Below are positions 4,570 to 24,320 of a DNA stretch of 24,470 nucleotides, one piece after another. Location of the stretch: the IMG/VR virus record IMGVR_UViG_2909272501_000001. One strand, written 5' to 3'. Numbering within the stretch: the first letter of the stretch is position 1; each line of letters starts with the position of its first letter. Origin of the DNA: a virus (Duplodnaviria; Heunggongvirae; Uroviricota; Caudoviricetes). Both the position numbers and the translations under genes were made by a program. The notes under the pieces were generated by a model that did no database searches, was not told where the DNA came from, and worked only from the letters and a program-made list of their open reading frames with translations.

Positions 4570-5161
4570 GGGACACCCCCATCACCGGCAGACGGGCAGC
4601 AAGGGAGAGCACATAGTCACGGACAAGGGAACGGCGGGCACTGCGTTCATCACCGGCGACGGTGCGAAGCATGCAGATACGGGGATGACGGTCTGCGCGA
4701 CGGACAGCCGCAAACACAAAGACAAATTCAGGGTGTGAAGGGGTAAGGGTCGTAGCCATAAGGCAACCTCCGATAACAGCATAAATGACGCTATCGCCGG
4801 AGTTTCCACGCTCGATGGCGATAGCCCAGACGGGGGTGGAAATACCGGCGTTATCGGAAACCGGCCAGCCCGGAGGCTGCCCCGCCTGAGCTACCATTGA
4901 CTCTGCGGTATAATGAGCGGACGCGGGCAGAATGCACGGAGTGCCATTTGCTCGACTGACCACACACCACACCATAATCTGGCGCTCTGTGGCGTTGATT
5001 GCGACACAAAAAAAGACGCATGGCGCGTCATATGTCGCCGATAACATACTCGGGTTTCCACGCCCGGCTGCCGATTTTGCGGCAGCGGAAAAACTATATC
5101 CGCAAATGCCGGAAAAAGGCAAGCCAGAAAAAGGGAGTTTTTGCAGAGCGGGCATCATCAT
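4562..5161 (-). CDS. Uncertain ORF (199 aa from the internal Met; 214 aa on the track) covering the position where P4 carries its kil/eta/cI immunity region
   Basis: Open frame whose stop overlaps the next gene's start, but the translation is low-complexity and several other frames are also open in this GC-rich stretch. May be a misread of small genes and/or an RNA locus. Confidence 0.2.
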
Positions 5162-5903: not shown

Positions 5904-5975
5904 TCTGCAATGCGTCGTGTTGTTGTCCGGTGTACGTCACAATTTTCTCAACCTGAAGTGACGAGGAGCCGGAAA

Positions 5976-6710
5976 ATGTCTGACAACACCATCCCTGAAT
6001 ATCTGCAACCCGCACTGGCACAACTGGAAAAGGCCAGAGCCGCCCACCTTGAGAACGCCCGCCTGATGGATGAGACCGTCACGGCCATTGAACGGGCAGA
6101 GCAGGAAAAAAATGCGCTGACGCAGGCCGACGGAAACGACGCTGACGACTGGCGCACGGCCTTTCGTGCAGCCGGTGGTGTCCTGAGCGACGAGCTGAAA
6201 CAGCGCCACATTGAGCGCGTGGCACGCCGGGAGCTGGTACAGGAATATGACAATCTGGCCGTGGTGCTGAATTTTGAACGCGAACGCCTGAAAGGGGCGT
6301 GTGACAGCACGGCCACCGCCTACCGGAAGGCACATCATCACCTTCTGAGTCTGTATGCAGAGCATGAGCTGGAACACGCCCTGAATGAAACCTGTGAGGC
6401 GCTTGTCCGGGCAATGCATCTGAGCATTCTGGTACAGGAAAATCCGCTCGCCAACACCACCGGGCATCAGGGCTACGTCGCACCCGATAAAGCTGTCATG
6501 CAGCAGGTGAAATCATCGCTGGAACAGAAAATAAAACAGATGCAAATCAGCCTCACCGGCGAGCCGGTTCTCCGGCTGACCGGACTGTCAGCGGCAACAC
6601 TTCCGCACATGGATTATGAGGTGGCAGGCACACCGGCACAGCGCAAGGTGTGGCAGGACAAAATAGACCAGCAGGGAGCAGAGCTTAAGGCCAGAGGACT
6701 GCTGTCATGA
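5976..6710 (+). CDS. sid: Sid, capsid size determination (external scaffold) protein
   Basis: 244 aa from the ATG at 5976 preceded by RBS GAGGAG (track ORF starts earlier at 5910). Length matches recalled P4 Sid. Followed by delta and psu in P4 order. Stop overlaps the delta start (ATGA). Confidence 0.85.
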   Translation: MSDNTIPEYLQPALAQLEKARAAHLENARLMDETVTAIERAEQEKNALTQADGNDADDWRTAFRAAGGVLSDELKQRHIERVARRELVQEYDNLAVVLNFERERLKGACDSTATAYRKAHHHLLSLYAEHELEHALNETCEALVRAMHLSILVQENPLANTTGHQGYVAPDKAVMQQVKSSLEQKIKQMQISLTGEPVLRLTGLSAATLPHMDYEVAGTPAQRKVWQDKIDQQGAELKARGLLS

Positions 6711-7207
6711 TTTACTGCCCGTCGTGTGGACATGTTGCTCACACCCGTCGCGCACATTTCATGGACGATGGCACCAAGATAATGATTGCACAGTGCCGGA
6801 ATATTTATTGCTCTGCGACATTTGAAGCGAGTGAAAGCTTTTTCTCTGACTGTAAAGATTCAGGAATGGAATACATTTCAGGCAAACAGAGATACCGCGA
6901 TTCACTGACGTCAGCCTCCGGCAGTATGAAACGCCCGAAAAGAATGCTTGTTACCGGATATTGTTGTCGGAGATGTAAAGGCCTTGCACTGTCAAGAACA
7001 TCGCGGCGTCTGTCTCAGGAAGTCACCGAGCGTTTTTATGTGTGCACGGATCCGGGCTGTGGTCTGGTGTTTAAAACGCTTCAGACCATCAACCGCTTCA
7101 TTGTCCGCCCGGTCACGCCGGACGAACTGGCAGAAAGCCTGCATGAAAAACAGGAACTGCCGCCAGTACGCTTAAAAACACAATCATATTCGCTGCGTCT
7201 GGAATGA
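6707..7207 (+). CDS. delta: Delta, Ogr-family zinc-finger late transcription activator (tandem Ogr-like domains)
   Basis: 166 aa. Two Cys4 Ogr-type motifs: CPSCGH...CRNIYCSATF and CCRRCKG...CTDPGCGLVF. Confidence 0.85.
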   Translation: MIYCPSCGHVAHTRRAHFMDDGTKIMIAQCRNIYCSATFEASESFFSDCKDSGMEYISGKQRYRDSLTSASGSMKRPKRMLVTGYCCRRCKGLALSRTSRRLSQEVTERFYVCTDPGCGLVFKTLQTINRFIVRPVTPDELAESLHEKQELPPVRLKTQSYSLRLE

Positions 7208-7280
7208 GGGCTGCCGGTTAACACCGGCCGTCGCCGCACACCGTATTTTTATTCTTCAGCATGATGAGAAAGAGATAACG

Positions 7281-7853
7281 ATGGAAAGCACAGCCTTACA
7301 GCAGGCCTTTGACACCTGTCAGAATAACAAAGCAGCATGGCTGCAACGCAAAAATGAGCTGGCAGCGGCCAAACAGGAATATCTGCGGCTTCTGTCAGGA
7401 GAAGGCAGAAACGTCAGCCGCCTGGACGAATTACGCAATATTATCGAAGTCAGAAAATGGCAGGTGAATCAGGCCGCCGGTCGTTATATTCGTTCGCATG
7501 AAGCCGTTCAGCACATCAGCATCCGCGACCGGCTGAATGATTTTATGCAGCAGCACGGCACAGCACTGGCGGCGGCACTGGCACCGGAGCTGATGGGCTA
7601 CAGTGAGCTGACGGCCATTGCCCGAAACTGTGCCATACAGCGTGCCACAGATGCCCTGCGTGAAGCCCTTCTGTCCTGGCTTGCGAAGGGGGAAAAAATT
7701 AATTATTCCGCACAGGATAGCGACATTTTAACGACCATCGGATTCAGGCCTGACGCGGCTTCGGTGGATGACAGCCGTGAAAAATTCACCCCTGCGCAGA
7801 ACATGATTTTTTCGCGTAAAAGTGCGCAACTGGCATCACGTCAGTCTGTGTAA
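7281..7853 (+). CDS. psu: Psu, polarity suppression / capsid decoration protein
   Basis: 190 aa, N-terminus MESTALQQAFDTCQNNKAAWLQRKNELAAA..., last gene of the sid-delta-psu operon. Confidence 0.85.
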   Translation: MESTALQQAFDTCQNNKAAWLQRKNELAAAKQEYLRLLSGEGRNVSRLDELRNIIEVRKWQVNQAAGRYIRSHEAVQHISIRDRLNDFMQQHGTALAAALAPELMGYSELTAIARNCAIQRATDALREALLSWLAKGEKINYSAQDSDILTTIGFRPDAASVDDSREKFTPAQNMIFSRKSAQLASRQSV

Positions 7854-7972: not shown

Positions 7973-8017
7973 AGCGTGTCAGTGCAACTGCATTAAAACC
8001 GCCCCGCAAAGCGGGCG

Positions 8018-8036
8018 GGCGTGGCGGGGGGAGCAT
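8018..8036. other. cos-like site (candidate cohesive-end sequence)
   Basis: GGCGTGGCGGGGGGAGCAT matches 15 of 19 positions of the P2/P4 cohesive end as I recall it (GGCGAGGCGGGGAAAGCAC). It sits right after psu, where cos lies in P4, next to a GC-rich imperfect palindrome (7999-8019). Confidence 0.35.
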
Positions 8037-8118
8037 TGCGCGCTAAGGCTGATATTATAATTTTCTTTAATTCTATTTGGTATTTTGGCTTTATTCGTCA
8101 GAAGGAACGTTTAGAAAT

Positions 8119-8146
8119 AGACCACTACAATGGATTGTAGCGGTCT
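8119..8146 (-). terminator. Hairpin terminator candidate ending the int-RT-partner operon
   Basis: 12-bp inverted repeat AGACCACTACAA/TTGTAGCGGTCT (one G-U-compatible mismatch), 4-nt loop, ~10 nt downstream of the partner gene stop, followed by a modest T-rich tract on the minus strand. Confidence 0.4.
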
Positions 8147-8155
8147 GCATGATAT

Positions 8156-8896
8156 CTAGCGTTGCATTTCAGTTACTATGAAATTTTCTTCTGTAATAGA
8201 ATTCATTATCTCAAAGTACAATTCTTCAGGTTGAATAAACGCCAACTCTTTGCAAAGGTTGACAATGGTATCACTATAAGTGATACCCATCCGAGGATTG
8301 AAAAGCTCAAATCTCTTGATGTTTCTTTTGTTTTTTGAGTAAAAGTTTAAAGTGAAATATATTAGCACCTGTCTAAGATCGTAAACACTAAACTTCCTAT
8401 CTCCTGATTTTATTTCCACAAGAACATTTGAATAATAAATATCGCCATATGAATTATTTATTACTCCGCATCCATCGAATTGTGGAGACACTTCAATTTG
8501 GTTTTCCATTCCATATCGAGACAAAATGTTTCTTGCTATTTCCCTTATGGCATTGTACTCAACCATGCTTAAGGGTAGCTTGAAGTTAGAACCGTAAGCG
8601 AACCGCTGTAGATATTCTTTTGTTTTTTCAAAAACAACCTGAAAATCAGCATTATGGAAGATATCATGTGCTGAAAGAATATTTCTGTCTAACGAATCAT
8701 TCTGTATTGCCCTATATAAATTAAATGCGCACTCATTAACAAAGACGTTATTTGACCTATTAGCGCAGTCATCTAGAGGAGGATAAACGTCCTCGATGAG
8801 ACTGCCGTTAATGATGCGTATGAAATTATTAGCATTTGGAAGCAATTGATTCCAAAATGAAGTGAATTTTCGAGAAAACGTTAATTCAGATATCAT
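8156..8896 (-). CDS. Hypothetical 246-aa protein, partner of the reverse transcriptase; possible nuclease-like effector
   Basis: ATG overlaps the RT stop (ATGA at 8893-8896), with RBS GAGGA inside the RT 3' end. Very AT-rich. Segment GDIYYSNVLVEIKSG could be a D...ExK (PD-(D/E)xK-like) core, but this is unverified. Confidence 0.75.
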   Translation of the reverse strand: MISELTFSRKFTSFWNQLLPNANNFIRIINGSLIEDVYPPLDDCANRSNNVFVNECAFNLYRAIQNDSLDRNILSAHDIFHNADFQVVFEKTKEYLQRFAYGSNFKLPLSMVEYNAIREIARNILSRYGMENQIEVSPQFDGCGVINNSYGDIYYSNVLVEIKSGDRKFSVYDLRQVLIYFTLNFYSKNKRNIKRFELFNPRMGITYSDTIVNLCKELAFIQPEELYFEIMNSITEENFIVTEMQR

Positions 8897-10521
8897 AGCG
8901 CATCCTCAAGATTTCTTGCGGTATGCCTTTTACTTGCCCAATCCCTGTAAATCACCTCTACAAAGTTGAATGTTTTCTTATTATGCTCTCTCCAGTGCCG
9001 TCCTTCATCACCTAAGATGTAACTGGAAACGATCAATAGTCTTCTCTGCAACGGATGCATTGCAGAGAAATTTTTTTTGATATCAGAAAGCCATGCGTAA
9101 GAATTAATTTTTGCCATTGACTGTGTAACTATGTTCTTGACTAAGATGCTTTCTGGATTGTTATTGTATATTTCACTAAGGATTAGGGTGGATTTTTCTG
9201 AATTTTCTTTTGAGAGCATTCGGGCTACATAGGCTAAGTTGAGCTCAGTACTCAAAATATATGAATCTTGTTTAATTAGTGCAGTTATTTTATCAAGAAT
9301 AATATCTTTGGTTTCTGTGCTTAATTTTTGCCAGTTGGAGTTAGCTACTTGAATTATAGTTGTAAATATTGGATATAACTCATGCAAGTTATTAAACATT
9401 ACTTTGAAAGCACTACTTATTATTTCATCTGATGTTGCTGAGAATGCCTTTATCAAATGCTTGCTAAAAGATTGGTTAATTTTTGATTTTTGTAACTCAC
9501 TACTCAGCATAGCTAACAAGTCAAAATCTTTTAAAGATTCCTTTATCTCTTCATATTCCTCTATCGCATTTGCTGAGTAAGGATCGAATCTTATAGGAAG
9601 ACTCATAAATTTAGCCTTCATAGGAGATTCTTCATCTTCATCATTACCATGCAACTTAGCTTTAGTTACTGAAAGGAACTCTTCTTTAGTAACAATATTG
9701 GTTTTTTGTTTCTGTAAAGTTAGCCCTTCATTTTCCATCAGTTTTTTACTAAGCAAAGTTAAAATCTTATGAGCATCCTCTCTAGAGTTACAAAAAATAA
9801 CAAAGTCGTCGACATAACGCTTATAGTTGATTCTATTCATAGACAATAATTTATCAATAGAATCTAGAGCTAGTTCTGCTAATATTCTAGAGGCAGGACA
9901 TCCAACTGGTACTCCATATGATTTTGTTTCACTAAATGTCTGTAGTAATTTCTTGATTTTCCCAGAGTAATCTTTATTGGGGTCGACTCTATCTAACGCA
10001 TTTTCTAAACGGTGGTGATAAATACGCGGATAGAAATCTGCTATATCGCATGTAAGTACATACTTTATTTCATCGTTAGAACATTCAGAGATACTGTCTT
10101 CTTGATATTTTCTCCAAGAGATCTCTTTATCAAAAAGAGAACCATCAGCAAGGTTTGGTTTAAAGCGATATGAATAAACCTGCGTTTTAGTAGATCTATT
10201 CCTTTCAATATCATCAGCGATTTTTAAAACTAACCCAAGAAAAAAAGCATTCCAGAATGGATCAATTTGGGTCGCCCACCTGTAACCATAATAACCAATA
10301 CTTGAAAAGCTATTAATTATGTTTGGTGGAATCTCGATCCTTTTATTTTCAAAGTCATTAAATGTTTGCATTAATGCAGTTTTTACTTTCTCCTTATCAT
10401 CTTCAAATAACCGACTTTCAAATGGGTAAGGGAAAATATCTGTATCGCCGTGCTTTATAATATTTTCCAATGCAAGCTCAAAGCAATTTTCTAGTTTACT
10501 ACTATCAAACTCGTTACTCAT
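8893..10521 (-). CDS. Reverse transcriptase, 542 aa, with ~230-aa alpha-helical C-terminal extension; UG/Abi-like defence-associated RT candidate
   Basis: RT motifs in canonical order: LTCDIADFYPRIYHHRL (motif A-like), SYGVPVGCPASRILAELAL (motif B'-like), KRYVDDFVIF (YVDD catalytic motif C), NEGLTLQKQKTNIV (motif D/E-like). RBS AAGGAGA; start overlaps the int stop by 8 nt. No retron-type VTG motif seen. Confidence 0.85.
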   Translation of the reverse strand: MSNEFDSSKLENCFELALENIIKHGDTDIFPYPFESRLFEDDKEKVKTALMQTFNDFENKRIEIPPNIINSFSSIGYYGYRWATQIDPFWNAFFLGLVLKIADDIERNRSTKTQVYSYRFKPNLADGSLFDKEISWRKYQEDSISECSNDEIKYVLTCDIADFYPRIYHHRLENALDRVDPNKDYSGKIKKLLQTFSETKSYGVPVGCPASRILAELALDSIDKLLSMNRINYKRYVDDFVIFCNSREDAHKILTLLSKKLMENEGLTLQKQKTNIVTKEEFLSVTKAKLHGNDEDEESPMKAKFMSLPIRFDPYSANAIEEYEEIKESLKDFDLLAMLSSELQKSKINQSFSKHLIKAFSATSDEIISSAFKVMFNNLHELYPIFTTIIQVANSNWQKLSTETKDIILDKITALIKQDSYILSTELNLAYVARMLSKENSEKSTLILSEIYNNNPESILVKNIVTQSMAKINSYAWLSDIKKNFSAMHPLQRRLLIVSSYILGDEGRHWREHNKKTFNFVEVIYRDWASKRHTARNLEDAL

Positions 10522-11698
10522 TCACATTCTCCTTAATAAAAATATAATCTGAATACCACTGCATCATATCACGGCGTTTATCAATATATTGAGCATGATT
10601 ATACGTACCTCTAATATTATTCTTATCTATATGAGCAAGCTGTATTTCTATCCAAGCCGAATCATATCCTTTTTCGTGGAGGATAGTAGATAAGGAATGT
10701 CGAAATCCATGACCAGTAAGTTTTCCACCATAACCAATACGCTTGATAACTTGGTTAATACTCGCCTCACTCATAGGCTTGTTCGGATCGTTCCGCCCCG
10801 GAAAAACATAACTATACTTCCCTGTCATCATCTTGAGTTCATTTAGCAAATCTAACGCTTGAGTCGACAAAGGCACAAGGTGTGATCTGCGCATTTTCAT
10901 CCTTTCAGCAGGAATTTCCCAAATAGCGTTATCTAAATCAAATTCTGACCATAATGCCGCACGTAATTCGATGGTTCTAACACCTGTAATCATGAGCAAT
11001 TTCGTGGCAATCAGGACAAGCCGACTTCCGGTATATCCGTTTAAGGCGCGAAGAAAATCAGGTATCTCATTAGCCTTTAAGAACGGGAAATGATTTGATT
11101 GGTGTACATTGAGGGCGCTTGAAAGATCCGCAGCAGGGTTAAACTCAGCCCTTCCAGTAGCAATGGCATAGCGGAAAACTTCTGAGCATCGCTGCCGAAC
11201 TTTGCGCATTTTTTCTAATGCACCGCGCTTTTCGATTTTACGCAGCACATTAAGCAGTTCTAGCGGTTTAATCTCTCCCACTGGCCTTGTTCCCACATAA
11301 GGAAAAATGTCGTTCTTAAACGCTTCCATGATGTCTGATGCATATCCCGCCGACCATTTGGTAGACTTCTGTTGATGCCACTCTCTGGCTATCTTTTCGA
11401 AGGCGTTCTCTGACTCTGTTTGCAGAGCCAGCTTTTGCTCTTTTCGAACCTCACTAGGGTTCTTTCCTTCTGCCACAAGTTTTCGAGCTTCATCACGACG
11501 GGAACGAGCATCAGCAAGAGTGATCGTTGGGTAAACACCAAGCGAGATCATTTTGGGTTTACCGGCATAGCGATAACGAAATCGCCAGCTTTTACTTCCA
11601 TTTGGCTCTACAAGTAAAGACAACCCTTGCCCATCCCCAAGTGTATAGGCTTTAGCTTCAGGTTTAGCACGGCGAATCTGCATATCATTTAGGGGCAT
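10514..11698 (-). CDS. int: P4-type (DUF4102-family) tyrosine integrase
   Basis: 394 aa. N-terminal ...RRAKPEAKAYTLGDGQGLSLLVEPNGSKSWRFRYRYAGKPKMISLGVYP... is characteristic of P4/CP4-57-type integrases. Catalytic R...HxxR...H...Y residues (GVRTIEL, GHGFRHSLS, LAHIDKN..RGTYNHAQY). Confidence 0.88.
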   Translation of the reverse strand: MPLNDMQIRRAKPEAKAYTLGDGQGLSLLVEPNGSKSWRFRYRYAGKPKMISLGVYPTITLADARSRRDEARKLVAEGKNPSEVRKEQKLALQTESENAFEKIAREWHQQKSTKWSAGYASDIMEAFKNDIFPYVGTRPVGEIKPLELLNVLRKIEKRGALEKMRKVRQRCSEVFRYAIATGRAEFNPAADLSSALNVHQSNHFPFLKANEIPDFLRALNGYTGSRLVLIATKLLMITGVRTIELRAALWSEFDLDNAIWEIPAERMKMRRSHLVPLSTQALDLLNELKMMTGKYSYVFPGRNDPNKPMSEASINQVIKRIGYGGKLTGHGFRHSLSTILHEKGYDSAWIEIQLAHIDKNNIRGTYNHAQYIDKRRDMMQWYSDYIFIKENVNE

Positions 11699-11881: not shown

Positions 11882-12023
11882 AAAACACTCGATTAATCTC
11901 GTGTTAATGCCATCACCTACGACCATTACTAATTGATTGAATCTGATAGAAAAATTATCATTTTCTATACCTTACAATCAATTTACACATTACAAACGCT
12001 CCGACACTTTAGCCGGAGATTTT

Positions 12024-13301
12024 ATGAGATACAAGCCTAACCAATACTTAATCTGTGATTCTTACGGTAACTACTATTTAAGGATCACGCTGCCTGTGTA
12101 TATGCAGCCCTTTTTTGAAGGAAAAAGGACGTTTGTCAGAAGTCTACACACAAGTAATCTTCGTGTGGCACGTCGAAAGCGTGATCAGATTGCAGATGAA
12201 TACCATTGCTTACGGGAGAGTGTTGCCCCTGTAAACAGCACAATAGAAAACACGCTGGAACTGTTACGCAGTAAGGCTAAATACGCCAAAACAGCTACCA
12301 GAATGCAAGATACAGCGTCTTCGTGTCCGTCATTGCTTAAAATTCTTGAAATCTACCTGACAATTAACAGCACGAAGAAGAAGCCAGCCACTTTAGCTAA
12401 GGCAAGAAAAGCGGTAGAGATGTTTCTCTCCTACCGTAAAAAGCCTGATATTGCATTGCAAGATGTAAGCCGCACCACTGTTACAGGCTGGATTGAACAC
12501 ATGCAAAAAACCCTTTCACAACAATCAATTGCAAATTATATCAGCCCAATGGTCCAGCTATGGGAGTTAGCTTCATCACGTTACCACGATGCGCCAGAAA
12601 GGGCGCTCTCCCCCTGGCGAGGGCATAGGCTTGATGTGGCACAAAGTAGAGAGAGCTACGAGGCATTTTCTAACAAAGAGCTATTGCAGGTGTTGCAAGT
12701 ATTTTCCGGTGATTCAGCAGAAAACAAAGAAATGACGGCTTTGTGTCTTATCGGTTTATATACAGGTATGCGGATCAATGAGATAGCAAGTATCACAATA
12801 GACGATGTGAAAGAGATCGAAGGTGTGCTGTGTTTTGAAATCACACAGGGAAAAACGAAAGCTGCGGCACGTCTTGTGCCTGTGCATAACCTTATCACTC
12901 CGTTGGTGTTGTCGCTGCGTGAAAAGCCTCACAATGGCTTTTTGTTCTATCACGCCAGCATTACAGAACGTGCTGACGGTAAACGCTCTACGTGGCATAC
13001 ACAACGATTTACAAGAGCTAAACGAAAGGCTTTAGGGGAAAAGGGAACAGAAAGGAAAGTGTTTCATTCTCTGAGACACGGAGTAGCACAGCTTCTTGAT
13101 CGAAATCAAATTCCAGAAGACAGGATCGCCCTTCTCCTGGGCCATACACGCGGCAATACAGAAACATTCCGCACATATAGCAAGAATGCAGCTTCTCCAG
13201 TAGAGCTTAAAAAATATATTGAGCTTTTACGCTACCCTGAAATAGAGAAAGGCTTATCAATCAATAAAAAATCAAATTTAAGGCGTAAAACAACGCCATA
13301 G
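12024..13301 (+). CDS. Second tyrosine recombinase/integrase (425 aa from the ATG at 12024; track ORF begins at a TTG at 11937)
   Basis: Catalytic signature GMRINEI (R), FHSLRHGVAQ (HxxR), LLGHT (H), TYSKN (Y). RBS GGAG 5 nt before the ATG. AT-rich. Confidence 0.75.
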   Translation: MRYKPNQYLICDSYGNYYLRITLPVYMQPFFEGKRTFVRSLHTSNLRVARRKRDQIADEYHCLRESVAPVNSTIENTLELLRSKAKYAKTATRMQDTASSCPSLLKILEIYLTINSTKKKPATLAKARKAVEMFLSYRKKPDIALQDVSRTTVTGWIEHMQKTLSQQSIANYISPMVQLWELASSRYHDAPERALSPWRGHRLDVAQSRESYEAFSNKELLQVLQVFSGDSAENKEMTALCLIGLYTGMRINEIASITIDDVKEIEGVLCFEITQGKTKAAARLVPVHNLITPLVLSLREKPHNGFLFYHASITERADGKRSTWHTQRFTRAKRKALGEKGTERKVFHSLRHGVAQLLDRNQIPEDRIALLLGHTRGNTETFRTYSKNAASPVELKKYIELLRYPEIEKGLSINKKSNLRRKTTP

Positions 13302-13381
13302 ACGTAATAAAGAGGCTTCAATATAGATTGATGCCTCTTTTATGATTATCTCGTTACAGAGCGTTTCATAGGCGTTTAAGG

Positions 13382-14059
13382 CTATTGTTTAAATACTGGC
13401 GTTACAACGTCTTGCCCTGGGCTTTTTTGATTTTTCTGTTCTGTTGTATTTACCTGCATTTTAACCTGTCCCCCTACAGATTTATTTGGTGCTGTTTTTA
13501 CAGCAATAGCATTAGTGGTGGCCTTAGAGACAAGACGAATTTGCTCAAAATCAAGAGTAAACAATAAGCTTTCGCTTGCTTCTTCTTCGTAAGACATGCC
13601 AACTAACACAACGTTGTCATAATTTTTTAACTCAGTGACAAGTAGGAAAGGTTGGCGACTGTCCATCAACTGATTTAGGTATTCAAGCATAAGCATACGT
13701 CGATTGCCGTTAATTCCCGCATTCTTAATCATATCGGGATTGAGTTTCAATACGGTTTCAGAGATACGCCCCTGTAATGTGAACTTGTTATTCCGTATTT
13801 GAACATGATCACTAACTTCTGATCCTGATTCGACGGCATAGCTTGTAACGTCTGCATTTCGGCTAACTTTCGTCGATTCCACGTTATCAAATGATAATGC
13901 CCGGTAGTCATTGTAAGCAGCATTTGCACCACTGCCGAGGTTAGAGGTAATAATCGCAAAGCCGTTACCCCCTTTAGTTGTTCTACCGTTGCTATCGTTG
14001 CTTGTGCTGTTGATTTTCGCCTCAGTCGGGCGACCAATGGTTAACGGACCCATTGCCAT
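13382..14059 (-). CDS. Hypothetical protein, 225 aa (possible virion-associated protein)
   Basis: ORF with RBS AAGGA; last gene of a co-oriented leftward block that includes capsid-like candidates. No recognisable motif. Confidence 0.45.
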   Translation of the reverse strand: MAMGPLTIGRPTEAKINSTSNDSNGRTTKGGNGFAIITSNLGSGANAAYNDYRALSFDNVESTKVSRNADVTSYAVESGSEVSDHVQIRNNKFTLQGRISETVLKLNPDMIKNAGINGNRRMLMLEYLNQLMDSRQPFLLVTELKNYDNVVLVGMSYEEEASESLLFTLDFEQIRLVSKATTNAIAVKTAPNKSVGGQVKMQVNTTEQKNQKSPGQDVVTPVFKQ

Positions 14060-14106
14060 AATTTGTAATCCTTATTTAAGGGGGCTAAACAGCCCCACAG
14101 TGATGA

Positions 14107-15948
14107 TTAATAGGTTGACCCGCCTGACATAACACCCAGCGTTAATAGCTTGCTAAACTCAGCGGAGGATGCCTTTGATTTGAAGTCGATAAATTCGCTC
14201 AATCGTCCGGTGTCTGATTCGATAGTTAGCGGCACTTCTGCATTTACTTGTAATTCTGGATTGAAGTTAATAACAGGTGCAAAGGTGTAAGAAGGAGTCT
14301 TGATAGCTTGTTGTGCTGCACTCTGTTTCAGATTTGCAATGTTTTGTCCTTCGAGAGTGTATTGATTTACAGCCTGCGCCCCGCCTACCGTTTCTTCTGG
14401 CGTAAACCAGCCTTTAATAGTGTTAAACAGGGAATTGCTGTTATCTGGCTTAGTTGTTCCGGTGCCAGCGCCTTTATATTGATCAGGAACGAGATTAGAA
14501 AGATTCTGTTTCATCCCTTCGTTAGACAGTGGCGGTGCATCACCTAAATTCTTCTGAATAGCTTCCGTCTTCTCGTCGTTTTTCATCAGCCAGTTGATTG
14601 CTTTCATTACGGCGTTAACCAATCCGCCGATAGCCTCGCCTAATTTGGTAAACATTGGCAGCATTGCAACCATACTCTTTTTGAACTCTTCAATCACAGC
14701 AGGATCGAGAGATTTCATAAAGCCATCAACAAAGGCGATCCCTTGTGAGTCAGAAAGCCCACTAAGTGCATTATTCAGTTCACGGAATTTAATAACGCTT
14801 TCCTGTTGTGCCTGTGTTACCCAGCGCCCTGATTCTCGTTGTTCTCGTGCTGATTGTTCCACTTCTTTAGCGGAGCGTGTCCAGTATTTAGAGGTGAGCA
14901 TCAAATCATCAGCCAGATCTTCCAGACGACTACCGATTTGTGCATCTGAATAGCCTTTAGCTACCATTCCCTGAACTGCTTTACTAACCAGACCAGCCGG
15001 ATTATCAGCAAAGTCTTTTAGATCCTTTTTAGTTAGGAATCCTTCATTCATTAAAGTATTGATGCCGCTATCGCCGCCCTTCCATTCTCCTTTACCAGTT
15101 TTCTTATCAACTACATATTCAGCTTCATCATAAGATTTGGTTGCACGTTCACGCACATCTTTCATCTGATCCAGATACTTACGTTTACCTTGTTCGCCCA
15201 TCATTGAATCAACGCCGTTTTTATACGCCCATTGTTCAACATCGTTCATCTGGTTAACGTCTACACCGCCCAGCTTCGCACGGCTATACAATTCACCCAG
15301 CGTTTCAGCATTCGCAAAGCTGTTAGTAACAAATTCAGAGGCTTTGCTCATAGCCATATACGTAGCGCCAGCGCCTAAGCCACCCAGCATAACAGCCGCA
15401 GCACCGCCGCCAATACTCCCGCTACCCTTAACAGGTGCATAGGCTTTAGCGTGAGCGTTACGATTGCCATTAATCTTACGTTGTTGCTGTTGTAGGCGTT
15501 TCATTTGGCTATTCATACGTGCCAGACTAATAGCGCCTCTTTCATATTGGAGGGCAATTTCTCTAGCCTGTGCAATAGCTTTATATTGTTCCGCTACAGA
15601 AAGACGGTGCATTGCACTAATGCTTGATCCAACGTCTAAAAGCTTTAATTCTGCCTTCTCTTTGCGTGCTGCCAGGGCTTTTTGTTCTCTTGCAACTACA
15701 CGTTGAGCGGCTAATTGTGCTTTAGCATTGGCTTTATCTGCCTGTGCTTGCTTTTTAGCAATATCGTCTACGTCTTTTTTTGCTTTAGCGGTTGATTGTT
15801 TATGTGTCTTAACACGCAATTCTATATCTTTCACCGCCGCCATTTGTTTACGAAGTTTTTCTACTTCTGCTTTTGCTTTCTCTAATGATGGTCGATCAAC
15901 CTGGAAGGTGACAACGTTTGATAAGCGGCTGACGTTAAGTTCTAACAT
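14107..15948 (-). CDS. Large coiled-coil / Gly-rich protein, 613 aa; tape-measure-like or other minor virion structural protein candidate
   Basis: N-terminal ~170 aa is Lys/Ala/Gln-rich with heptad-like periodicity, followed by a Gly-rich hydrophobic segment (GSIGGGAAAVMLGGLGAGATYMAM) and then a globular region. RBS AGGGA. Confidence 0.55.
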   Translation of the reverse strand: MLELNVSRLSNVVTFQVDRPSLEKAKAEVEKLRKQMAAVKDIELRVKTHKQSTAKAKKDVDDIAKKQAQADKANAKAQLAAQRVVAREQKALAARKEKAELKLLDVGSSISAMHRLSVAEQYKAIAQAREIALQYERGAISLARMNSQMKRLQQQQRKINGNRNAHAKAYAPVKGSGSIGGGAAAVMLGGLGAGATYMAMSKASEFVTNSFANAETLGELYSRAKLGGVDVNQMNDVEQWAYKNGVDSMMGEQGKRKYLDQMKDVRERATKSYDEAEYVVDKKTGKGEWKGGDSGINTLMNEGFLTKKDLKDFADNPAGLVSKAVQGMVAKGYSDAQIGSRLEDLADDLMLTSKYWTRSAKEVEQSAREQRESGRWVTQAQQESVIKFRELNNALSGLSDSQGIAFVDGFMKSLDPAVIEEFKKSMVAMLPMFTKLGEAIGGLVNAVMKAINWLMKNDEKTEAIQKNLGDAPPLSNEGMKQNLSNLVPDQYKGAGTGTTKPDNSNSLFNTIKGWFTPEETVGGAQAVNQYTLEGQNIANLKQSAAQQAIKTPSYTFAPVINFNPELQVNAEVPLTIESDTGRLSEFIDFKSKASSAEFSKLLTLGVMSGGSTY

Positions 15949-15982
15949 GCTAATTGTTTCCCTGTATTATGATTGTTGTTTA

Positions 15983-16180
15983 TTATTGTTTTTTAGAGCA
16001 ATAGTATTGAATTGCTTCGAAAGTGCTGCATCCAGTCTGAAAGACACGCTGACGCACATTATTTGCATCAATTTCTAAAAGGCGGCAAAGCGCCGATGTG
16101 TTTATAACTGATTCCTCGCTAATAGCTGCCAGTTCTTTTACAGATTTAAGAATTAATGCCTGTGAATTTTCTGCGTTCAT
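15983..16180 (-). CDS. Small hypothetical protein, 65 aa
   Basis: ORF between the 343-aa and 613-aa genes; no motif recognised. Confidence 0.3.
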   Translation of the reverse strand: MNAENSQALILKSVKELAAISEESVINTSALCRLLEIDANNVRQRVFQTGCSTFEAIQYYCSKKQ

Positions 16181-16335
16181 TGGTTTTCTCTCACATATAT
16201 ATTTTTATTTGGGTTTGTAGACAGTAGAAAAAAAATAAGGGCAAGAGACAGCGCATATTTTGCTTATATGATTATCCCTTACCCTTATTGCCCCGATTAT
16301 TTCCAGACGATGGGGAATCGTCTATTAACGCTTTA

Positions 16336-17367
16336 TTACGCAGCAGATCCGAAGATGATAGCTTGCGGAATGTTGTTTACTGGCAGATAAGATGTCTCAG
16401 TAACCACAGATGGGAATTGGAATTCATCCTTGATTAGATATTGGTGATGTAACACGGCATCTTGACCTAACTCAGCATGACGCACACCAACGCCGCTATG
16501 AAGCTGATAGCACTGTGCCGCTTTATCCATTACTGGAACAATTGCGAAACCGTTCTCTCCGATGTGAGCAACAATCTCAGGAAACATTGACACATCAATA
16601 ACAGTGATCCCACCAATCTGGAAAGAGTCATAGGCTGGGTTAGAATCAACCATACGGGTAAACAGGGCCGTAGCACTCGCATCACCTGCATATTTCACCA
16701 TGTCACTGATCAGCGGGTTAGATGACAAACCATCAGCAGCAGCGCCAGCAGCAAAGATAATTACACCAGTTCGCTTTGCAGCAAGACCAGACCCCAGCTT
16801 TTCACTCTGTAAGCGCACCGCTTTACGAATAGCAAGGAACGGGTTAACAGTAGTCGATGCAAAGTCGATAGCGGGTACCGTGGTTTTAGCCTGACCGTCG
16901 AGGAAGTCGAGATCACCTTGTCCGGCATATTCAGATTCAACTTTCAGGCCCAGCAGCGCGGTAATCAGATCCACTTCAACACGGTTTGCGTGTGAACGGT
17001 AATGTGCCTCAGAGAAATCATTAACCGCTACCAGCATAGCATCAGAACGGTTTGGATATTGGCGGCTGTATTGTTCCAGGTCACGAGAAGTAACAGCGTT
17101 AATACTGCCGACGTGTTTCATCTGGAAAAGTTTGTTTGACCATTCCTGACGTTTAGAGGCGTTCCAGTCGCTTTGAGCGTAAGGCGAGGTTTCCCCAGCT
17201 ACCTGCACAAACTGATCAATCAGGTCGGTAAGAAGAATGCTGTTTTCTGTATGATATTGCACATCGAACAGATCGAGATTAGTAATCAGGGTATTAAGTG
17301 CATTCTCATAAGCAAATGGAGTTACTACCGCAGTATTAACGCCAAAATATGTTGATAAATCATTCAT
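16336..17367 (-). CDS. Hypothetical protein, 343 aa; major-capsid-like candidate (speculative)
   Basis: Size and position directly after a ~125-aa decoration-like gene resemble the lambda D/E arrangement. No direct sequence similarity to lambda gpE that I can confirm by eye. Confidence 0.5.
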   Translation of the reverse strand: MNDLSTYFGVNTAVVTPFAYENALNTLITNLDLFDVQYHTENSILLTDLIDQFVQVAGETSPYAQSDWNASKRQEWSNKLFQMKHVGSINAVTSRDLEQYSRQYPNRSDAMLVAVNDFSEAHYRSHANRVEVDLITALLGLKVESEYAGQGDLDFLDGQAKTTVPAIDFASTTVNPFLAIRKAVRLQSEKLGSGLAAKRTGVIIFAAGAAADGLSSNPLISDMVKYAGDASATALFTRMVDSNPAYDSFQIGGITVIDVSMFPEIVAHIGENGFAIVPVMDKAAQCYQLHSGVGVRHAELGQDAVLHHQYLIKDEFQFPSVVTETSYLPVNNIPQAIIFGSAA

Positions 17368-17381
17368 TATTATTTTCCTTG

Positions 17382-17765
17382 TTAAGTCGTAGGGATCGCA
17401 AGTTCTTCATAACCAGCAATTACAAAGCCGAGAGATTGCAGTTTTGCAATAACACTTGCCTTTTCCATACTGTTAAATTCAATCCCATCTTCAGCCAGAA
17501 TAACGAAAGTAGGATGTGCAACCACTACGCTTTCCTGTCCTTCATAAGCCGGTTCAACCACTACGTGAGCAATATCAGAAGCGGTTGTTGCTTTGGTGCC
17601 ATCGGCTTTCAGCAAAGCCCCGACAATAAGATCGTCAGTGAGAGGTGAAGCCAGTTTGACGAGGCGATCTTGCAGCACTGGATCAGCAGCGTAAGCTACT
17701 ACCTTACAGCGTGAACGGGAATTATCCGCATTCACTGCTTTTAATTTTCCATATGGGTTAGCCAT
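17382..17765 (-). CDS. Hypothetical protein, 127 aa; head-decoration-like candidate (speculative)
   Basis: Small Ala/Val-rich beta-type protein starting MANPYGKLKAVNADN..., immediately upstream of the 343-aa gene. Confidence 0.45.
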   Translation of the reverse strand: MANPYGKLKAVNADNSRSRCKVVAYAADPVLQDRLVKLASPLTDDLIVGALLKADGTKATTASDIAHVVVEPAYEGQESVVVAHPTFVILAEDGIEFNSMEKASVIAKLQSLGFVIAGYEELAIPTT

Positions 17766-17769
17766 AAGA

Positions 17770-17967
17770 TTATTTTCCTTTCAGTTGTTTAATTTTAGAT
17801 TTAAGGGCATCAGCAAGACTAACCGCATCAGCCGATTTAAATAATTGAGCAGTGGTAGAACGAAGACTTTCGGGAGTAACTCCCAACAGTGCGGCAACCT
17901 TAATGAGGTTTTCATCACTAACAATCATCGTTTCCCCGTCTTTGCTGATAATCATTTCTTGTTTCAT
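17770..17967 (-). CDS. Small hypothetical protein (65 aa from the ATG with RBS AGGAAC; track ORF extends to 18009)
   Basis: ORF with plausible RBS; first gene of the leftward structural-like block. Confidence 0.3.
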   Translation of the reverse strand: MKQEMIISKDGETMIVSDENLIKVAALLGVTPESLRSTTAQLFKSADAVSLADALKSKIKQLKGK

Positions 17968-18948
17968 AAATAACGTTCCTGTTAGTGCCAGACAAATAAA
18001 AAGCCCCAATGCCGTAAGAGGTTCTGACCAGCAAAGGGGCTTTAACGTGCGGGCAATTACATAATTGATAAGTTAAACTATAAGAGGATTAAACATATCA
18101 GCAAATACACTTTTTAAATATACTTGATGATATGCTTAAAGGGTGAATAGATACTCCTGAAAACATGCTCTTAAGAAAACATGCGGAATCAATCAGGAAT
18201 ATCTATTCGGGGCGCGGTGGCTAACCGCTATCTTTCATGGTGTGGATGCACCAGTCAGATTTTAAGGAATCACTATTCCAATCTACTCACAGATTAAATT
18301 TTTAATAAGGATTAACTACACCAACAGTAATCTACCGTTTCAGAAAATCGTTTCACAACCAAAGATTATAGATCCGCATTCTATAAAACCCGTTTTGCTA
18401 TCAATATTTCCAAAGTTTATTGCACCATTCTTAGCTAAACTCTCTCTACTTGCGGCTAACGCTATGCAGATGATAGTTTTTTGACAACAACTTAATAGAT
18501 TATTCTGTTACTAACTTCCGTCATTAAATAAGAGTTTAATGATGTTAGTAAATAGTTATAAAATATAACTATCAGTGTAAGGCTCTTTAATGTTTTCGGA
18601 CAAAATAAGGAGCTTTAGGATAAGCATAGATGAAAAATAAGAGCGGGAAGGGCAAGGAGATAACACCTACCCGCTTTTATCAAAAATTAAGCACAATGCC
18701 TAACAACATTCATCAACACAACGTAGAAACAATCAACAATCAAAGAGGGAGTTATGATTATTCTAAAACTTCTTGATAGATGGAAGGTAATATTTGTTAG
18801 AGGTTAATGCCACTCAACCTTTGAGGCTATCACCTTCCATATGCAGGGATTTATGACAGTAGAAGGATTAACACCAACTAAAATCTTTTAATCTACCCCT
18901 AAAATTATTATATAACAAAATCATCATAAATGCAAATGATTTTCATTA

Positions 18949-19251
18949 TCATTTAGAGAAAATAGCACTTTTTGCTAAATCATTTACTAATTGCTGAATC
19001 TCTTCACTTGCAGCCTTTAACGTGCTGGCGGTGTCTGTGATGGTTTGAGTGCACATCTTGGCATCTGATAGCTCTAAATCGCTCACCAGAGAGACAAAAT
19101 CTTCTAAGCATACATTGAGCTTCATTAAGCTAATAACGCATTGAGAGAGCGTATAATCGCATAAATCTGAATAGGCTTGATTTATTCTTGTTTGTAGTGA
19201 GATAGTCAGATCTAAAAGTTGTTCCATTGCATTGCTAATATCTTCTTCCAT
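18949..19251 (-). CDS. Hypothetical acidic helical protein, 100 aa
   Basis: ORF; start ATG overlaps the stop of the upstream 81-aa gene. Confidence 0.4.
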   Translation of the reverse strand: MEEDISNAMEQLLDLTISLQTRINQAYSDLCDYTLSQCVISLMKLNVCLEDFVSLVSDLELSDAKMCTQTITDTASTLKAASEEIQQLVNDLAKSAIFSK

Positions 19252-19496
19252 TATGCGTATTCTCCTTGTAATGCATCATTAATCATATTCAATACGATGT
19301 TAAAAGGTGTCTTGAGCGTCAGCACTTCATCACGGTAACGTTCTAATGCTTCGTAGTCTTCTGTTTCTTTTGCCAGCCGGATTAACTCAGCATAGTTTTT
19401 TGCATCAGACAGGAGCATCTGAAATAATTGTGTTTCTTGAATATAGCCAATCATTATTTTTCCTTTTTCGAATATTTTCATTGGGCGCTTATACAT
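19251..19496 (-). CDS. Hypothetical protein, 81 aa
   Basis: ORF in the co-oriented operon downstream of the rep-like gene. Confidence 0.4.
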   Translation of the reverse strand: MYKRPMKIFEKGKIMIGYIQETQLFQMLLSDAKNYAELIRLAKETEDYEALERYRDEVLTLKTPFNIVLNMINDALQGEYA

Positions 19497-19511
19497 ACGC
19501 CCGTCTTTCTA

Positions 19512-19892
19512 TTAGTTAGAACGTTTGTTAGATGCGAGAGTGTCGATCAGGTGCTGCATCAGATCTGTTTCTGTAACGCCGCCTACCTGATTGTTGAACG
19601 AATTGAAGCCTGTATAGTGACGAAATGAGGTAAAGCCTAACAATTGCCATTTCTTCAATGTGCCAGGTTCTATAATCGTTGTCTTTCTTGTTCTGGGTTT
19701 GAAATACACACCATCACCCATTGATTGAATAATTTCTAATTCTTCGTTTGTAAGTGGTGGGCTGTTAGATTCTAAAATGAAGACTATCTCTTCACCTGCT
19801 TCTTCATTATTCTTATAAACTTGCTTTCTTACGTCGTTGAAGGTGTTCCCTTGCTCAATACGTTTTAAGTTGTTCTTTTTCTTTCTTCCCAT
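19512..19892 (-). CDS. Hypothetical protein, 126 aa, basic N-terminus
   Basis: ORF with RBS GAGGGA; N-terminal MGRKKKNNLKR. Confidence 0.45.
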   Translation of the reverse strand: MGRKKKNNLKRIEQGNTFNDVRKQVYKNNEEAGEEIVFILESNSPPLTNEELEIIQSMGDGVYFKPRTRKTTIIEPGTLKKWQLLGFTSFRHYTGFNSFNNQVGGVTETDLMQHLIDTLASNKRSN

Positions 19893-20026
19893 TTTCCCTC
19901 TTTTTATGTGGATTATAAAAACTGAATGCCATAGTTACGATGAATATTGCTACAAATGCACTTGCCATATGTATTGCCCGATCTGTTGTTACTGATTGTT
20001 TGTGATGTTATAAATCATTTATTTCC

Positions 20027-20596
20027 TTAAAAGGGTAGTGAATCATATATTGTGCTCTCACTTTTGAGATCAATTATCAAAGAGTCAAAATCATTTTCAC
20101 AAAGATAGATATTCTTTGAATCTAATGCTCGTTTTACAAAATCTTCTGTTTCTTCGTGCGGTGGTTTCTTCTTATCAAGGGAAAGAAGCCAAGTAAAAAT
20201 TTCGGGCCGCTCAGGGAACTCTGGCTCTTGTGTTTCTTCTTCAACGATGATTTCGGAAACATTCAATATTTCATTAGATTCGTCTTCTTTCTCAGAAGGA
20301 TCAGGTAGTGATGATTCTCCTTTTGGAATATCAAGCACTCGATAAAGGTTAGAGCTTCCTGGTCGTGCATCTTTTATAATTAATCCCATTTCGAGCAATT
20401 TCTTAACCCTTTCTTCTGCTGCTCTTGGTGTTATGCCAAAAACATCGCCTATCTTAGCGTAAGAGGGAAATGCACGATCAAACCCTCTCAGATAGCAGTA
20501 AAGGTTTTTAGCACTATCTGTAAATTTATGCCCGTTTACTTGGCTTATTTTTAGAATCCACATAGGAACTTTTACAAATTGTTCTTCATTAATCAT
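20027..20596 (-). CDS. Winged-helix DNA-binding protein, 189 aa from the ATG at 20596; replication initiator / replisome-organiser-like candidate
   Basis: RBS AAGGAGA 5 nt before the ATG. Segment NLYCYLRGFDRAFPSYAKIGDVFGITPRAAEERVKKLLEMGLIIK resembles wHTH initiator N-domains. Acidic C-terminal half. Same operon as an RHH protein and downstream of the iteron cluster. Confidence 0.5.
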   Translation of the reverse strand: MINEEQFVKVPMWILKISQVNGHKFTDSAKNLYCYLRGFDRAFPSYAKIGDVFGITPRAAEERVKKLLEMGLIIKDARPGSSNLYRVLDIPKGESSLPDPSEKEDESNEILNVSEIIVEEETQEPEFPERPEIFTWLLSLDKKKPPHEETEDFVKRALDSKNIYLCENDFDSLIIDLKSESTIYDSLPF

Positions 20597-20649
20597 TAAA
20601 AATCTCCTTGATGTAATCACGCTCTACGGCGCTACTATGGTGATAAAAA

Positions 20650-20820
20650 TCACTTGCTTTTGTTTGAGAGTGTTTCAGCCTCTCTTTTCAACATATCAAG
20701 AATGTAATCTGTAACAGTGATACGTTTACTTCTGGCTTCTTTAAACAACACCTGAAATACTTCATCAGGAATATGAAAGCAAGTGCGTGGTTGCCTTTTC
20801 TTTTCTGTAGTTTCGCTCAT
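20650..20820 (-). CDS. Ribbon-helix-helix (CopG/Arc-like) DNA-binding protein, 56 aa from the internal ATG
   Basis: Strong RBS AAGGAGA before the ATG at 20820. Sequence KRQPRTCFHIPDEVFQVLFKEARSKRITVTDYILDMLK fits the RHH beta-strand-helix-helix pattern. Confidence 0.55.
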   Translation of the reverse strand: MSETTEKKRQPRTCFHIPDEVFQVLFKEARSKRITVTDYILDMLKREAETLSNKSK

Positions 20821-20839
20821 AGTTTTCTCCTTCTCTTCT

Positions 20840-21040
20840 TTACTCTGTTTCAGATTCTTTTTCAGATCCTTTTTCATTTTTTCTTAATTCATCAATAATT
20901 TTTAGTGCATCGTCAAAGCATTTTTCACGCTCTGGATAACCACAGCGTCGCGCTGTGTTCCTGTTCATCCTTACTTTAAAACGGTTGATCTCACCACGTT
21001 TCCAGGCTTCCACAATATCCTGTGGAGTGAAATATTTCAT
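20840..21040 (-). CDS. Hypothetical small protein, 66 aa
   Basis: Strong RBS AGGAGG before the ATG at 21040; first gene of the leftward operon below the iteron region. Confidence 0.45.
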   Translation of the reverse strand: MKYFTPQDIVEAWKRGEINRFKVRMNRNTARRCGYPEREKCFDDALKIIDELRKNEKGSEKESETE

Positions 21041-21883
21041 TAATTAACCTCCTATTCTATTTAGTTAAAAGAAATAGACACCTTGCAAGCCTTGGGCTTC
21101 AAAGTGCGATGCATTGGTTTAATTATTTAAAGGATAAGAATGTTTTCCTGCCCCTAATATTACTTTACCACGACTAAAGGCTTTTGTCAACCCCCCAGCC
21201 ATAAAAATATTGATCATTTTCAGTGTGTTATGATTTTTCTTAGCAATTCGTGCTCTTACGAATACTCCAATTCTTCATTATTGTCTAAAACGCTCTAAAA
21301 CGCGTTCTAACGAGGTTTTGATAAAAACAATACATTCCCTTATGTAATGGCTGTTTAGCTCGCCTACGGTTTGATTTAAGCGGTAGAAACTCATCTACTA
21401 CCTAACATCTTTAAACCATATTTTTCTTTTTTGTCTGTTTGATGGTTGATCTATAGTTATGCGTTAGCATCCCCAAAGGGGTAACGCTACCCTAATTGCA
21501 TTCGCAAGAACATTGCACAAGAAATTTATTTTAGATGATTGATGATCGTTAGATGGTAGTTAGTTAATTATCGTTCTGCGCACAGCGCAAGACTATTTAG
21601 CCTTACGCAAGCCGTAGGCTATTTGCACATAGTAGATTACATATTCGTTGTGAGCGGAAAGCGAACATAGATCTACTAACTAACATTAACAAACAAAAAC
21701 TATGTGTTATGAGAAGTATCAGTCTAACTGACTAACACTCTAACTTGTGCAAGGTTCTGGCGAATGCCAATAGATTAAGGGATAGTCGAAGACTCCCTAA
21801 CGGGTATCCCTATAATTATTCTTTAAAGATAAAAGAATTTATAAAAGATAATTTAATTGTAGTTTGATAGTTGATCTAATAGG

Positions 21884-22021
21884 TAACAAAATTCTGTAGG
21901 GGTGGCTAACAGTTTTCTGTGGGGGTGTCTAACATAATTCTGTTAGGGTTGGGGTAACAGTTTTCTGTTAGGGTGCATATTTCTTTAAAAGTTAAGGATA
22001 ACAGAATTCTGTGGGGGTAGC
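21884..22021. repeat. Iteron cluster: five ~23-bp direct repeats, consensus TAACA(n)3TTCTGT(n)GGGGT
   Basis: Copies begin at 21884, 21907, 21930, 21955 (tandem, 23-25 bp spacing) and 21999 (after an AT-rich spacer), upstream of the operon containing the RHH and wHTH genes. Confidence 0.6.
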
Positions 22022-22854
22022 TCACAGTGACCTACCGTTACATCCATCACATAACATCTGTGCAATGATCTTCTTATAATCAGTAAAAGTCTTTCTTGCT
22101 ATCAAAAATTAAACATCTAAAACAAGCTTAAATTCAAGATTAATTGATGATTAATCCCTGTGTAATTCCATACTAAAAAATCCAAGAAAAATGGCTTCAA
22201 AATGCAATTCTTACTTTCTTCACTTTTGCGTCATCATCAGCAAAGCCTTATGTTATGCGGCATATAGCGCATCACTGCAAAATTGTTGCTCAATAAACGT
22301 TCTATCATTTGTTGAACAAGTTCTTTCACGTGTTGAAAATTTATGTTTAAATTTGCTTTCAATCTTTAATGTGCAATCACTATCAACATAAAAATAAAAA
22401 ATCTTCTATTATATTTCATAGCATACAAAAGTCAATAGAAGCCCTCTCGTGCTCCTACGTAAAAAATCCACCATTTTTCCCCTGATACATCAACTCAAGG
22501 CGTTCTATGTGTTCCTTAGTGCATATTACGATTATTATGTTAAATGTATTTTGGCCTATATTTTGACCTGCACCCGCATAAACACTGGTTTCATCGCTTA
22601 CAGCCCTTGTGAGACGTGGTGCTGTTTCTAGCATCTGATCCGACATAAAACCGATCATTCTCGTGTTTAGTGAAAGTTTAGTGAGAGACATTACAGAAAG
22701 GCTTTCTGTGTAATGATTTAATAGGTAAAAACGATGTTGATTACGCAAGAAAATTCCTTGCTGATATTTGGGGATTCTGGATTTTCCAGATCGGGGGGCG
22801 CTGAAAATCGCGTTAAGCACCTCTCGCAATCTAGCCATAAGGGAGGGGATTCAT

Positions 22855-22929
22855 ATGTATTTAGATGTATTTATAGCTATTTATGGCTATTTATTTTTTA
22901 TTTACCTTTATTTGAAAACAACCTTATAA
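22855..22929 (+). CDS. Candidate 24-aa hydrophobic peptide MYLDVFIAIYGYLFFIYLYLKTTL
   Basis: ATG 5 nt after a strong SD (AAGGGAGGGG). Very short, so a coding call is tentative. Confidence 0.25.
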   Translation: MYLDVFIAIYGYLFFIYLYLKTTL

Positions 22930-24251: not shown

Positions 24252-24320
24252 TAATTTCACTATCAGGCGCATAAACACATCTTTGATCGCTGGATGTGTT
24301 ATGCGCCTACTGGTGATTCA

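Follow-up and report, generated by a model that had tools for sequence, protein, structure and literature searches.

A very probable RecB/Cas4-type PD-(D/E)xK nuclease encoded beside the UG7 reverse transcriptase of a DRT8 cassette in a P4-like satellite of Escherichia coli

Introduction

The reverse transcriptases (RTs) of group UG7 have been described both with and without a companion gene. A neighbour termed 'cluster 17', a remote homologue of PD-(D/E)XK nucleases, accompanies 150 of 385 UG7 RTs (Mestre et al. 2022, Nucleic Acids Res 50:6084, PMC9226505). Another UG7 variant lacks a companion gene, and about half of the UG7 RTs are without a linked nuclease (PMC9226505). The group is found in the variable regions and hotspots of P2 and P4 elements (PMC9226505). 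An earlier attempt at UG7 immunity used the sequence of the nuclease-associated variant, with the nuclease gene overlooked; once reconstituted, the system gave E. coli robust protection against T5, and it received the name DRT type 8 (PMC9226505). [quoted passage not shown] The mechanism of DRT8 was called 'not yet established' in a review of May 2026 (PMC13213688). Literature searches for the mechanism of DRT8 or UG7 returned only the 2022 study of Mestre et al. and passing mentions, and no biochemical activity of the nuclease or of a close homologue was found in the literature.

Class 1 UG/Abi enzymes consist of an RT domain and a helical repeat domain, and their single-stranded DNA (ssDNA) product is covalently attached to protein. 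[quoted passage not shown] DRT4, AbiK, and Abi-P2 are single-protein systems in which the DNA product is thought to be the agent (PMC12783706), while AbiA has a fused HEPN domain (PMC9226505). In contrast to these four, DRT8 as found here couples a separate DNA-nuclease gene to the RT.

Retrons share with DRT8 the logic of an RT and a nuclease effector paired in an anti-phage operon, for example type I-A with an HNH nuclease and Eco8 with an OLD-family nuclease. They depend on a templating ncRNA, and their product is msDNA.

The gene pair considered here lies in a 24,470-nt stretch of DNA (the window) that carries a P4-like satellite of E. coli. An earlier note, made from the letters of the window, had read the partner of the RT as a possible PD-(D/E)xK-type nuclease. 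Its further suggestions, an RT that senses infection and an abortive-infection outcome, are hypothetical. The pair is the known two-gene DRT8 (UG7) anti-phage system, which was described and tested in 2022, is represented in defence-system databases, and is not new. The following sections compare the locus with DRT8 and its relatives and consider what the nuclease may do.

The gene pair as a DRT8 locus

The two genes lie on the same strand and overlap by four nucleotides:

8156..8896, minus strand, gene of the predicted RT-associated PD-(D/E)xK nuclease, 246 aa, DRT8 accessory or effector (PADLOC family RTasPDDEXK)
8893..10521, minus strand, gene of the 542-aa UG7 (Drt8) class 1 UG/Abi RT

The 246-aa reading frame at 8156..8896 starts with ATG. 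The PADLOC model RTasPDDEXK matches its product at 5.5e-69, with residues 1-239 aligned to profile positions 1-224 of 226. For the RT, the best PADLOC model is Drt8 at 4.9e-166, with residues 11-532 aligned to profile positions 4-492 of 493, and the second is UG21 at 1.2e-37; Pfam RVT_1 matches at 1.2e-18. Both proteins are thus near end-to-end matches to DRT8 families, and the architecture and the location in a P4 hotspot are alike as well. No difference from DRT8 was found, and the locus is one allele of the described system. The RefSeq label of the nuclease is 'hypothetical protein' in all identical E. coli copies listed.

The cassette within its satellite

The gene content of the satellite comprises a primase-helicase, a sid-like gene, ogr/delta, psu, the cassette, and an integrase. 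The features that frame the cassette are as follows:

5910..7853, plus strand, P4-like satellite genes bounding the other side of the hotspot (RefSeq annotation of the identical locus)
5910-6710, plus strand, sid-like gene
6707-7207, plus strand, ogr/delta zinc-finger gene
7281-7853, plus strand, psu, polarity suppression gene
4814-5099, minus strand, C4 antisense RNA and isrK (Rfam)
7999..8018, minus strand, GC-rich hairpin with a T run, intrinsic-terminator-like (consensus scan)
8045..10521, minus strand, low-GC cargo cassette in the psu-int hotspot
10514..11698, minus strand, P4-type tyrosine integrase directly upstream of the RT (RefSeq annotation of the identical locus)
10514-10521, minus strand, 8-nt overlap of integrase stop and RT start

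Rfam scores the C4 antisense RNA at 77.9 bits, its a1/b1 target at 51.5, and isrK at 74.7, and the finding of these P4 immunity RNAs confirms the P4-like nature of the element. The GC content of the cassette is 32-37%, against 50-60% in the backbone. Of 5426 complete E. coli genomes, 104 carry the whole cassette in essentially identical form. A further ~980 E. coli genomes share only the sequence from 7860 to ~8045-8063, which is the first 185-204 nt after psu, and the left edge of the variable hotspot is therefore placed at ~8045-8063. The right edge falls within the last integrase codons: the integrase stop overlaps the RT start, and the AAGGAG ribosome-binding site of the RT lies in those same codons, so the cargo boundary is inside the integrase reading frame. 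Integrase, RT, and nuclease may share one transcript. An equal arrangement of integrase and RT is seen at a Citrobacter locus. The terminator-like hairpin lies ~140 nt downstream of the nuclease stop, in conserved P4 backbone just outside the cassette, and was found by a scan whose number of sites equals chance expectation.

Several observations concern the surroundings of the cassette. In E. coli EN-1077 (NZ_CP159209.1), an IS3-family element interrupts an otherwise identical cassette region. The usual integration targets of P4-like satellites are tRNA genes; ARAGORN found no tRNA gene in the whole 24,470-nt stretch. Beyond the P4-type integrase, the window continues with a second integrase and an island:

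11937..13301, plus strand, second tyrosine integrase (Phage_integrase and DUF6538), back to back with the P4-type integrase
13382..14059, minus strand, Dit-like tail/baseplate protein gene in the low-GC island

This low-GC island follows the second integrase within 11937-24470 and holds mostly hypothetical genes. None of the ten largest ORFs of the region 11937-24470 matches PADLOC. Strain ECCRA-119 has a different island at that position, with a DUF4062 protein and another RT-domain protein, which marks the site as a tandem integration hotspot.

Gene coupling and related loci

The junction of the two genes carries two features:

8893..8896, minus strand, ATGA overlap of RT stop TGA and nuclease start ATG
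8903..8907, minus strand, GAGGA, Shine-Dalgarno-like, 6 nt 5' of the nuclease ATG, within the 3' end of the RT gene

The ATGA overlap suggests translational coupling of RT and nuclease and implies their joint production, with a complex as the probable working form. The arrangement is conserved, as the UG7 RT stands immediately upstream of the nuclease with a 4-nt A/GTGA overlap in all 18 related loci, and a (G)GAGGA/GGAAGA-like stretch is found at most of the junctions. Sixteen of these loci come from one-genome-per-species contigs and two are metagenomic (nuclease identity 33% and 26%); a GmrSD restriction gene comes next in one of the latter. The sixteen include Citrobacter, Brenneria, Oceanimonas, Pseudoalteromonas, Aeromonas, Marinobacter, Leptothrix, and Thalassospira, and also MAGs of Planctomycetales and Oscillospiraceae. 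Gamma-, Beta-, and Alphaproteobacteria are among the taxa of the 18 loci, which lie mostly outside P4-like elements. The nuclease diverges faster than the RT in related loci, for example 41-44% against 60-62% identity.

Some copies of the cassette appear to be decaying. At the Brenneria bubanii locus (L003:5001-5591), the nuclease ORF is shortened to 196 aa, and in an alphaproteobacterial MAG (L017:3351-5004) the RT is broken into two ORFs.

No conserved non-coding DNA was found upstream or downstream of the gene pair in 17 loci, as would be expected of a class 1 system that has no ncRNA. Rfam detected no retron family in the 24,470-nt stretch and nothing near the cassette, its only matches being C4, isrK, and c4-a1b1. 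PDB entries of retron RT-nuclease complexes do appear among the structure matches. A retron was considered and rejected, given the lack of a conserved ncRNA flank in the 17 loci, the lack of an Rfam retron, and the UG/Abi lineage of the RT; the nuclease fold differs from that of retron effectors as well.

Motif, conservation, and fold of the nuclease

The reading of the partner as a nuclease had been drawn from the spacing and context of a short motif in FDGCGVINNSYGDIYYSNVLVEIKSG, which corresponds to nuclease residues 140-165 and is identical to the letters quoted at that time. An Asp about ten residues ahead of E-I-K is indeed present: D152 stands nine residues before E161, and K163 follows. 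D141, the second Asp of the quoted stretch, is variable among 42 homologues. The predicted active-site codons, which are invariant in the close and the divergent alignments and occur in RecB-like motif order, are:

8357..8443, minus strand, predicted active-site codons of the nuclease
8441-8443, minus strand, D152 codon
8414-8416, minus strand, E161 codon
8408-8410, minus strand, K163 codon
8369-8371, minus strand, Q176 codon
8357-8359, minus strand, Y180 codon

When the nuclease sequence is shuffled, 35% of the shuffles contain the pattern D-x(6-14)-[DE]-x-K. It occurs together with a hydrophobic strand context in 2.5% of shuffles, and together with a later QxxxY in 1%. The bare D...ExK motif is within chance and is alone too weak to justify the inference of a nuclease. 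The conclusion of the earlier note stands, although its reasoning from the motif was weak. The 35% frequency would suit the reading that D...ExK is a chance motif in a protein with no nuclease fold, and so would the lack of a Pfam or NCBIfam match. This reading deserves next to no credence in view of the confident structural model, the consistent matches to the RecB/Cas4 family by two structure-comparison methods, the invariance of the motif residues, and the PADLOC family model at 5.5e-69.

D152, E161, K163, Q176, and Y180 are invariant in 42 nuclease homologues. Among 40 cluster representatives of 25-43% identity, the invariant residues are M1, W15, N30, G142, D152, E161, K163, Q176, Y180, N200, and G204. 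RecB-family nucleases are characterised by the set D / (D/E)xK / QxxxY, and the order in E. coli RecB, D1067 / D1080-x-K1082 / Q1110-xxx-Y1114, is that of the nuclease. The family is large: a word-indexed search gave 96 homologues, and an exhaustive profile search gave 1016 cluster representatives (E <= 1e-3), the best 150 of which are ~225-260 aa long and start at residue 1, except for a few fragments and longer calls.

Inactive nuclease-like domains lose their catalytic residues. This bears on the reading that the protein is a degenerate, catalytically dead fold that lends structure or DNA binding to the RT complex, in the way of the nuclease-like domain of RecC. Such a role is very unlikely, as all five residues are invariant in a family of 1016 cluster representatives and the published active-site mutations abolish defence (PMC9226505).

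The AlphaFold model built from the alignment is confident (pLDDT 91.2, pTM 0.88) and contains a restriction-endonuclease-like alpha/beta core. In its predicted positions, D152 lies directly before strand 153-155, E161 within strand 158-162 with K163 directly after it, and Q176 and Y180 within the next helix, 171-185. Structure comparison places MGME1, Dna2, Cas4, and the nuclease domains of RecB, AddA, and AdnAB as the closest folds, with RecE, lambda Exo, and other phage exonucleases also among the matches. Foldseek gives weaker matches, but its top ranks are again Dna2, Cas4, MGME1, and RecB. Structure prediction with a fold search, a check proposed in the earlier note, thus returned RecB/Cas4-family matches by two structure-comparison methods. 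Together with the RTasPDDEXK match and the invariant catalytic set, this bears out its assignment of the RT partner to the PD-(D/E)xK-type nucleases. The mutation of catalytic residues, another check named there, had already been published for a DRT8 system, with defence abolished (PMC9226505).

By sequence alone, the protein falls into no nuclease family. Neither Pfam nor NCBIfam gave a meaningful match for the nuclease or for any of the 42 alignment members; one member reached PDDEXK_3 at E 0.13 only. Sequence and profile searches of PDB sequences with the nuclease returned chance matches only (leukocidin, interferon gamma). When the profile of the divergent family was compared by hhalign with lambda Exo and with the nuclease domain of E. 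coli RecB, each as a single sequence, no match was obtained. The link to the superfamily therefore rests on structure comparison and the curated PADLOC model. On these grounds, the 246-aa protein is very probably a RecB/Cas4-type PD-(D/E)xK nuclease and a stand-alone member of the RecB/Cas4/MGME1 branch.

Several features set it apart from that branch. Compared to RecB, Cas4, MGME1, Dna2, and AddAB-AdnAB, the nuclease here stands alone, with ~240 aa and no helicase. In contrast to Cas4, AddB, and Dna2, it has no four-cysteine Fe-S cluster. Its motif spacers are shorter than those of the RecB/Cas4 branch, and the similarity is below Pfam and hhalign detection. Moreover, its near-invariant N-terminal M-I-S-E has no described counterpart there.

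Cas4 proper was rejected as an identity, as the four conserved Fe-S cysteines are absent and the PADLOC Cas4a2 match is marginal (E 0.021). The cysteines of the nuclease are C44, C56, C143, and C215, with only C143 conserved. Divergent relatives have a second cysteine around residues 143-151, in the consensus G-C-G-x4-C-x-G-D, and this E. coli lineage has S149 there. The cysteine pair of the divergent nucleases may form a lineage-specific disulfide or bind metal.

The N-terminus of the nuclease is a further conserved element:

8885-8896, minus strand, nuclease residues 1-4, M-I-S-E

Close homologues show little or no variation in M-I-S-E and in the T/F/S and W15 that follow, and these residues still form the majority sequence among nucleases of 25-43% identity. 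Such conservation is unusual for a protein start, and the 4-nt gene overlap does not account for it. The N-terminus could belong to the active site, as motif I, or serve as a contact with the RT.

The presence of RecE, lambda Exo, and other phage exonucleases among the fold matches, along with the location on a mobile element, would be in line with a recombination or repair exonuclease of the satellite, acting in the manner of RecE or lambda Exo and merely adjoined by the RT. Little credence can be given to this role. The 4-nt overlap with a UG7 RT in 18 of 18 loci, in distant taxa and mostly outside P4-like elements, argues against it, as do the lack of an adjoining SSAP partner gene at the locus and a cassette GC unlike that of the P4 backbone. 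In addition, tblastn of the nuclease against 50,697 phage genomes gave no match.

The RT partner

The RT carries an intact YxDD motif, in which V237, D238, and D239 are invariant in 30 RT homologues. Its C-terminus, ~residues 320-542, is an all-helical repeat domain as in class 1 UG/Abi RTs. The RT model (pLDDT 86.6) aligns over ~380-440 residues with several class 1 UG/Abi enzymes, and its closest structural relatives are DRT4, AbiK, Abi-P2, and AbiA. The features of interest in the gene are:

9805-9816, minus strand, codons of the RT catalytic YVDD, residues 236-239
10165-10173, minus strand, RT S-Y-R, residues 117-119, with invariant tyrosine Y118
9574-9585, minus strand, RT D-P-Y-S, residues 313-316, with invariant tyrosine Y315

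Between the RT and helical repeat domains lies a loop of pLDDT <50, residues 312-318, that contains D-P-Y-S. By analogy with Tyr125 of DRT4 and with AbiK, Y118 or Y315 could be the protein-priming residue. An HMM alignment used for mapping Tyr125 onto the RT starts at DRT4 residue 143 and gives no equivalence.

In an 896-aa protein from an ENA metagenome (P0180), a UG7-like RT, 56% identical across 99% of the query, is joined to protein kinase domains (PF07714/PF00069), which would be a different effector coupling for UG7 RTs.

Proposed mechanism and its alternatives

The 246-aa protein is proposed to be the nuclease subunit of the two-gene DRT8 anti-phage system, carried as cargo by a P4-like satellite of E. 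coli at its variable hotspot. That this predicted nuclease is an active component required for DRT8 defence is given a probability of about 0.8. By analogy with DRT4, AbiK, Abi-P2, and AbiA, the RT would make protein-primed, untemplated ssDNA. On infection, the nuclease would execute defence by cutting DNA, and its recruitment or control would fall to the RT or to the DNA that the RT makes. The triggers of DRT4, DRT10, and DRT7 are SSB-like proteins, nuclease inhibitors, and DNA mimics. The structural relatives of the nuclease mostly act on ssDNA or DNA ends, and its substrate is therefore likely to be phage DNA undergoing replication or recombination, or host DNA that has free ends or single-stranded stretches. 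An attack on phage or host DNA is put at roughly even odds, and it is favoured over an obligatory processing of the RT product. Because a linked nuclease is missing from about half of the UG7 RTs, the nuclease may be an accessory and not the sole effector.

The processing alternative is tentative and carries the lower probability. It holds that the nuclease trims the RT's own DNA product, releases it from the priming residue, or turns it over, and that toxicity or defence really comes from this product or from its build-up, as it does in DRT4, DRT9, and DRT7. The ssDNA- or end-specific action of the enzymes with the closest folds (MGME1, Dna2, Cas4, and the RecB/AddA/AdnAB domains) is consistent with it, as is the protein-attached ssDNA made by class 1 UG/Abi RTs. 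Activation of DRT4 and DRT10 is set by the balance of RT product against exonucleases (SbcB), and strict translational coupling would suit an enzyme working on the product of its partner. Half of the UG7 systems work, or at least exist, without a nuclease (PMC9226505). On the other hand, mutation of the nuclease site abolishes defence, whereas the mere removal of a toxic product predicts toxicity or hyper-activation on such a mutation (PMC9226505). The loss of defence would still fit an obligatory maturation step. A narrower form of processing is doubtful and ranks lower again: a RecB/MGME1-like ssDNA-end nuclease dedicated to the RT's protein-primed DNA, which would release a defined species or reset the enzyme, with M-I-S-E of the nuclease and D-P-Y-S of the RT as docking and priming elements. 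The preferred reading remains a nuclease that executes defence on phage or host DNA under the control of the RT or its product.

Implications for DRT8

The pairing of RT and nuclease, the defence role, and the requirement for the nuclease site were published in 2022, and the present analysis adds no new biology to them. The annotation is useful because RefSeq calls the protein a 'hypothetical protein' and no Pfam or NCBIfam model covers it. If the nuclease were dedicated to the RT product, DRT8 would be the first class 1 UG/Abi system with built-in product processing. For work on the mechanism of DRT8, it is helpful that residues D152, E161, K163, Q176, and Y180 are assigned, that the nuclease is placed in the ssDNA- and end-processing RecB/Cas4/MGME1 branch, and that the ATGA coupling of the two genes is conserved.
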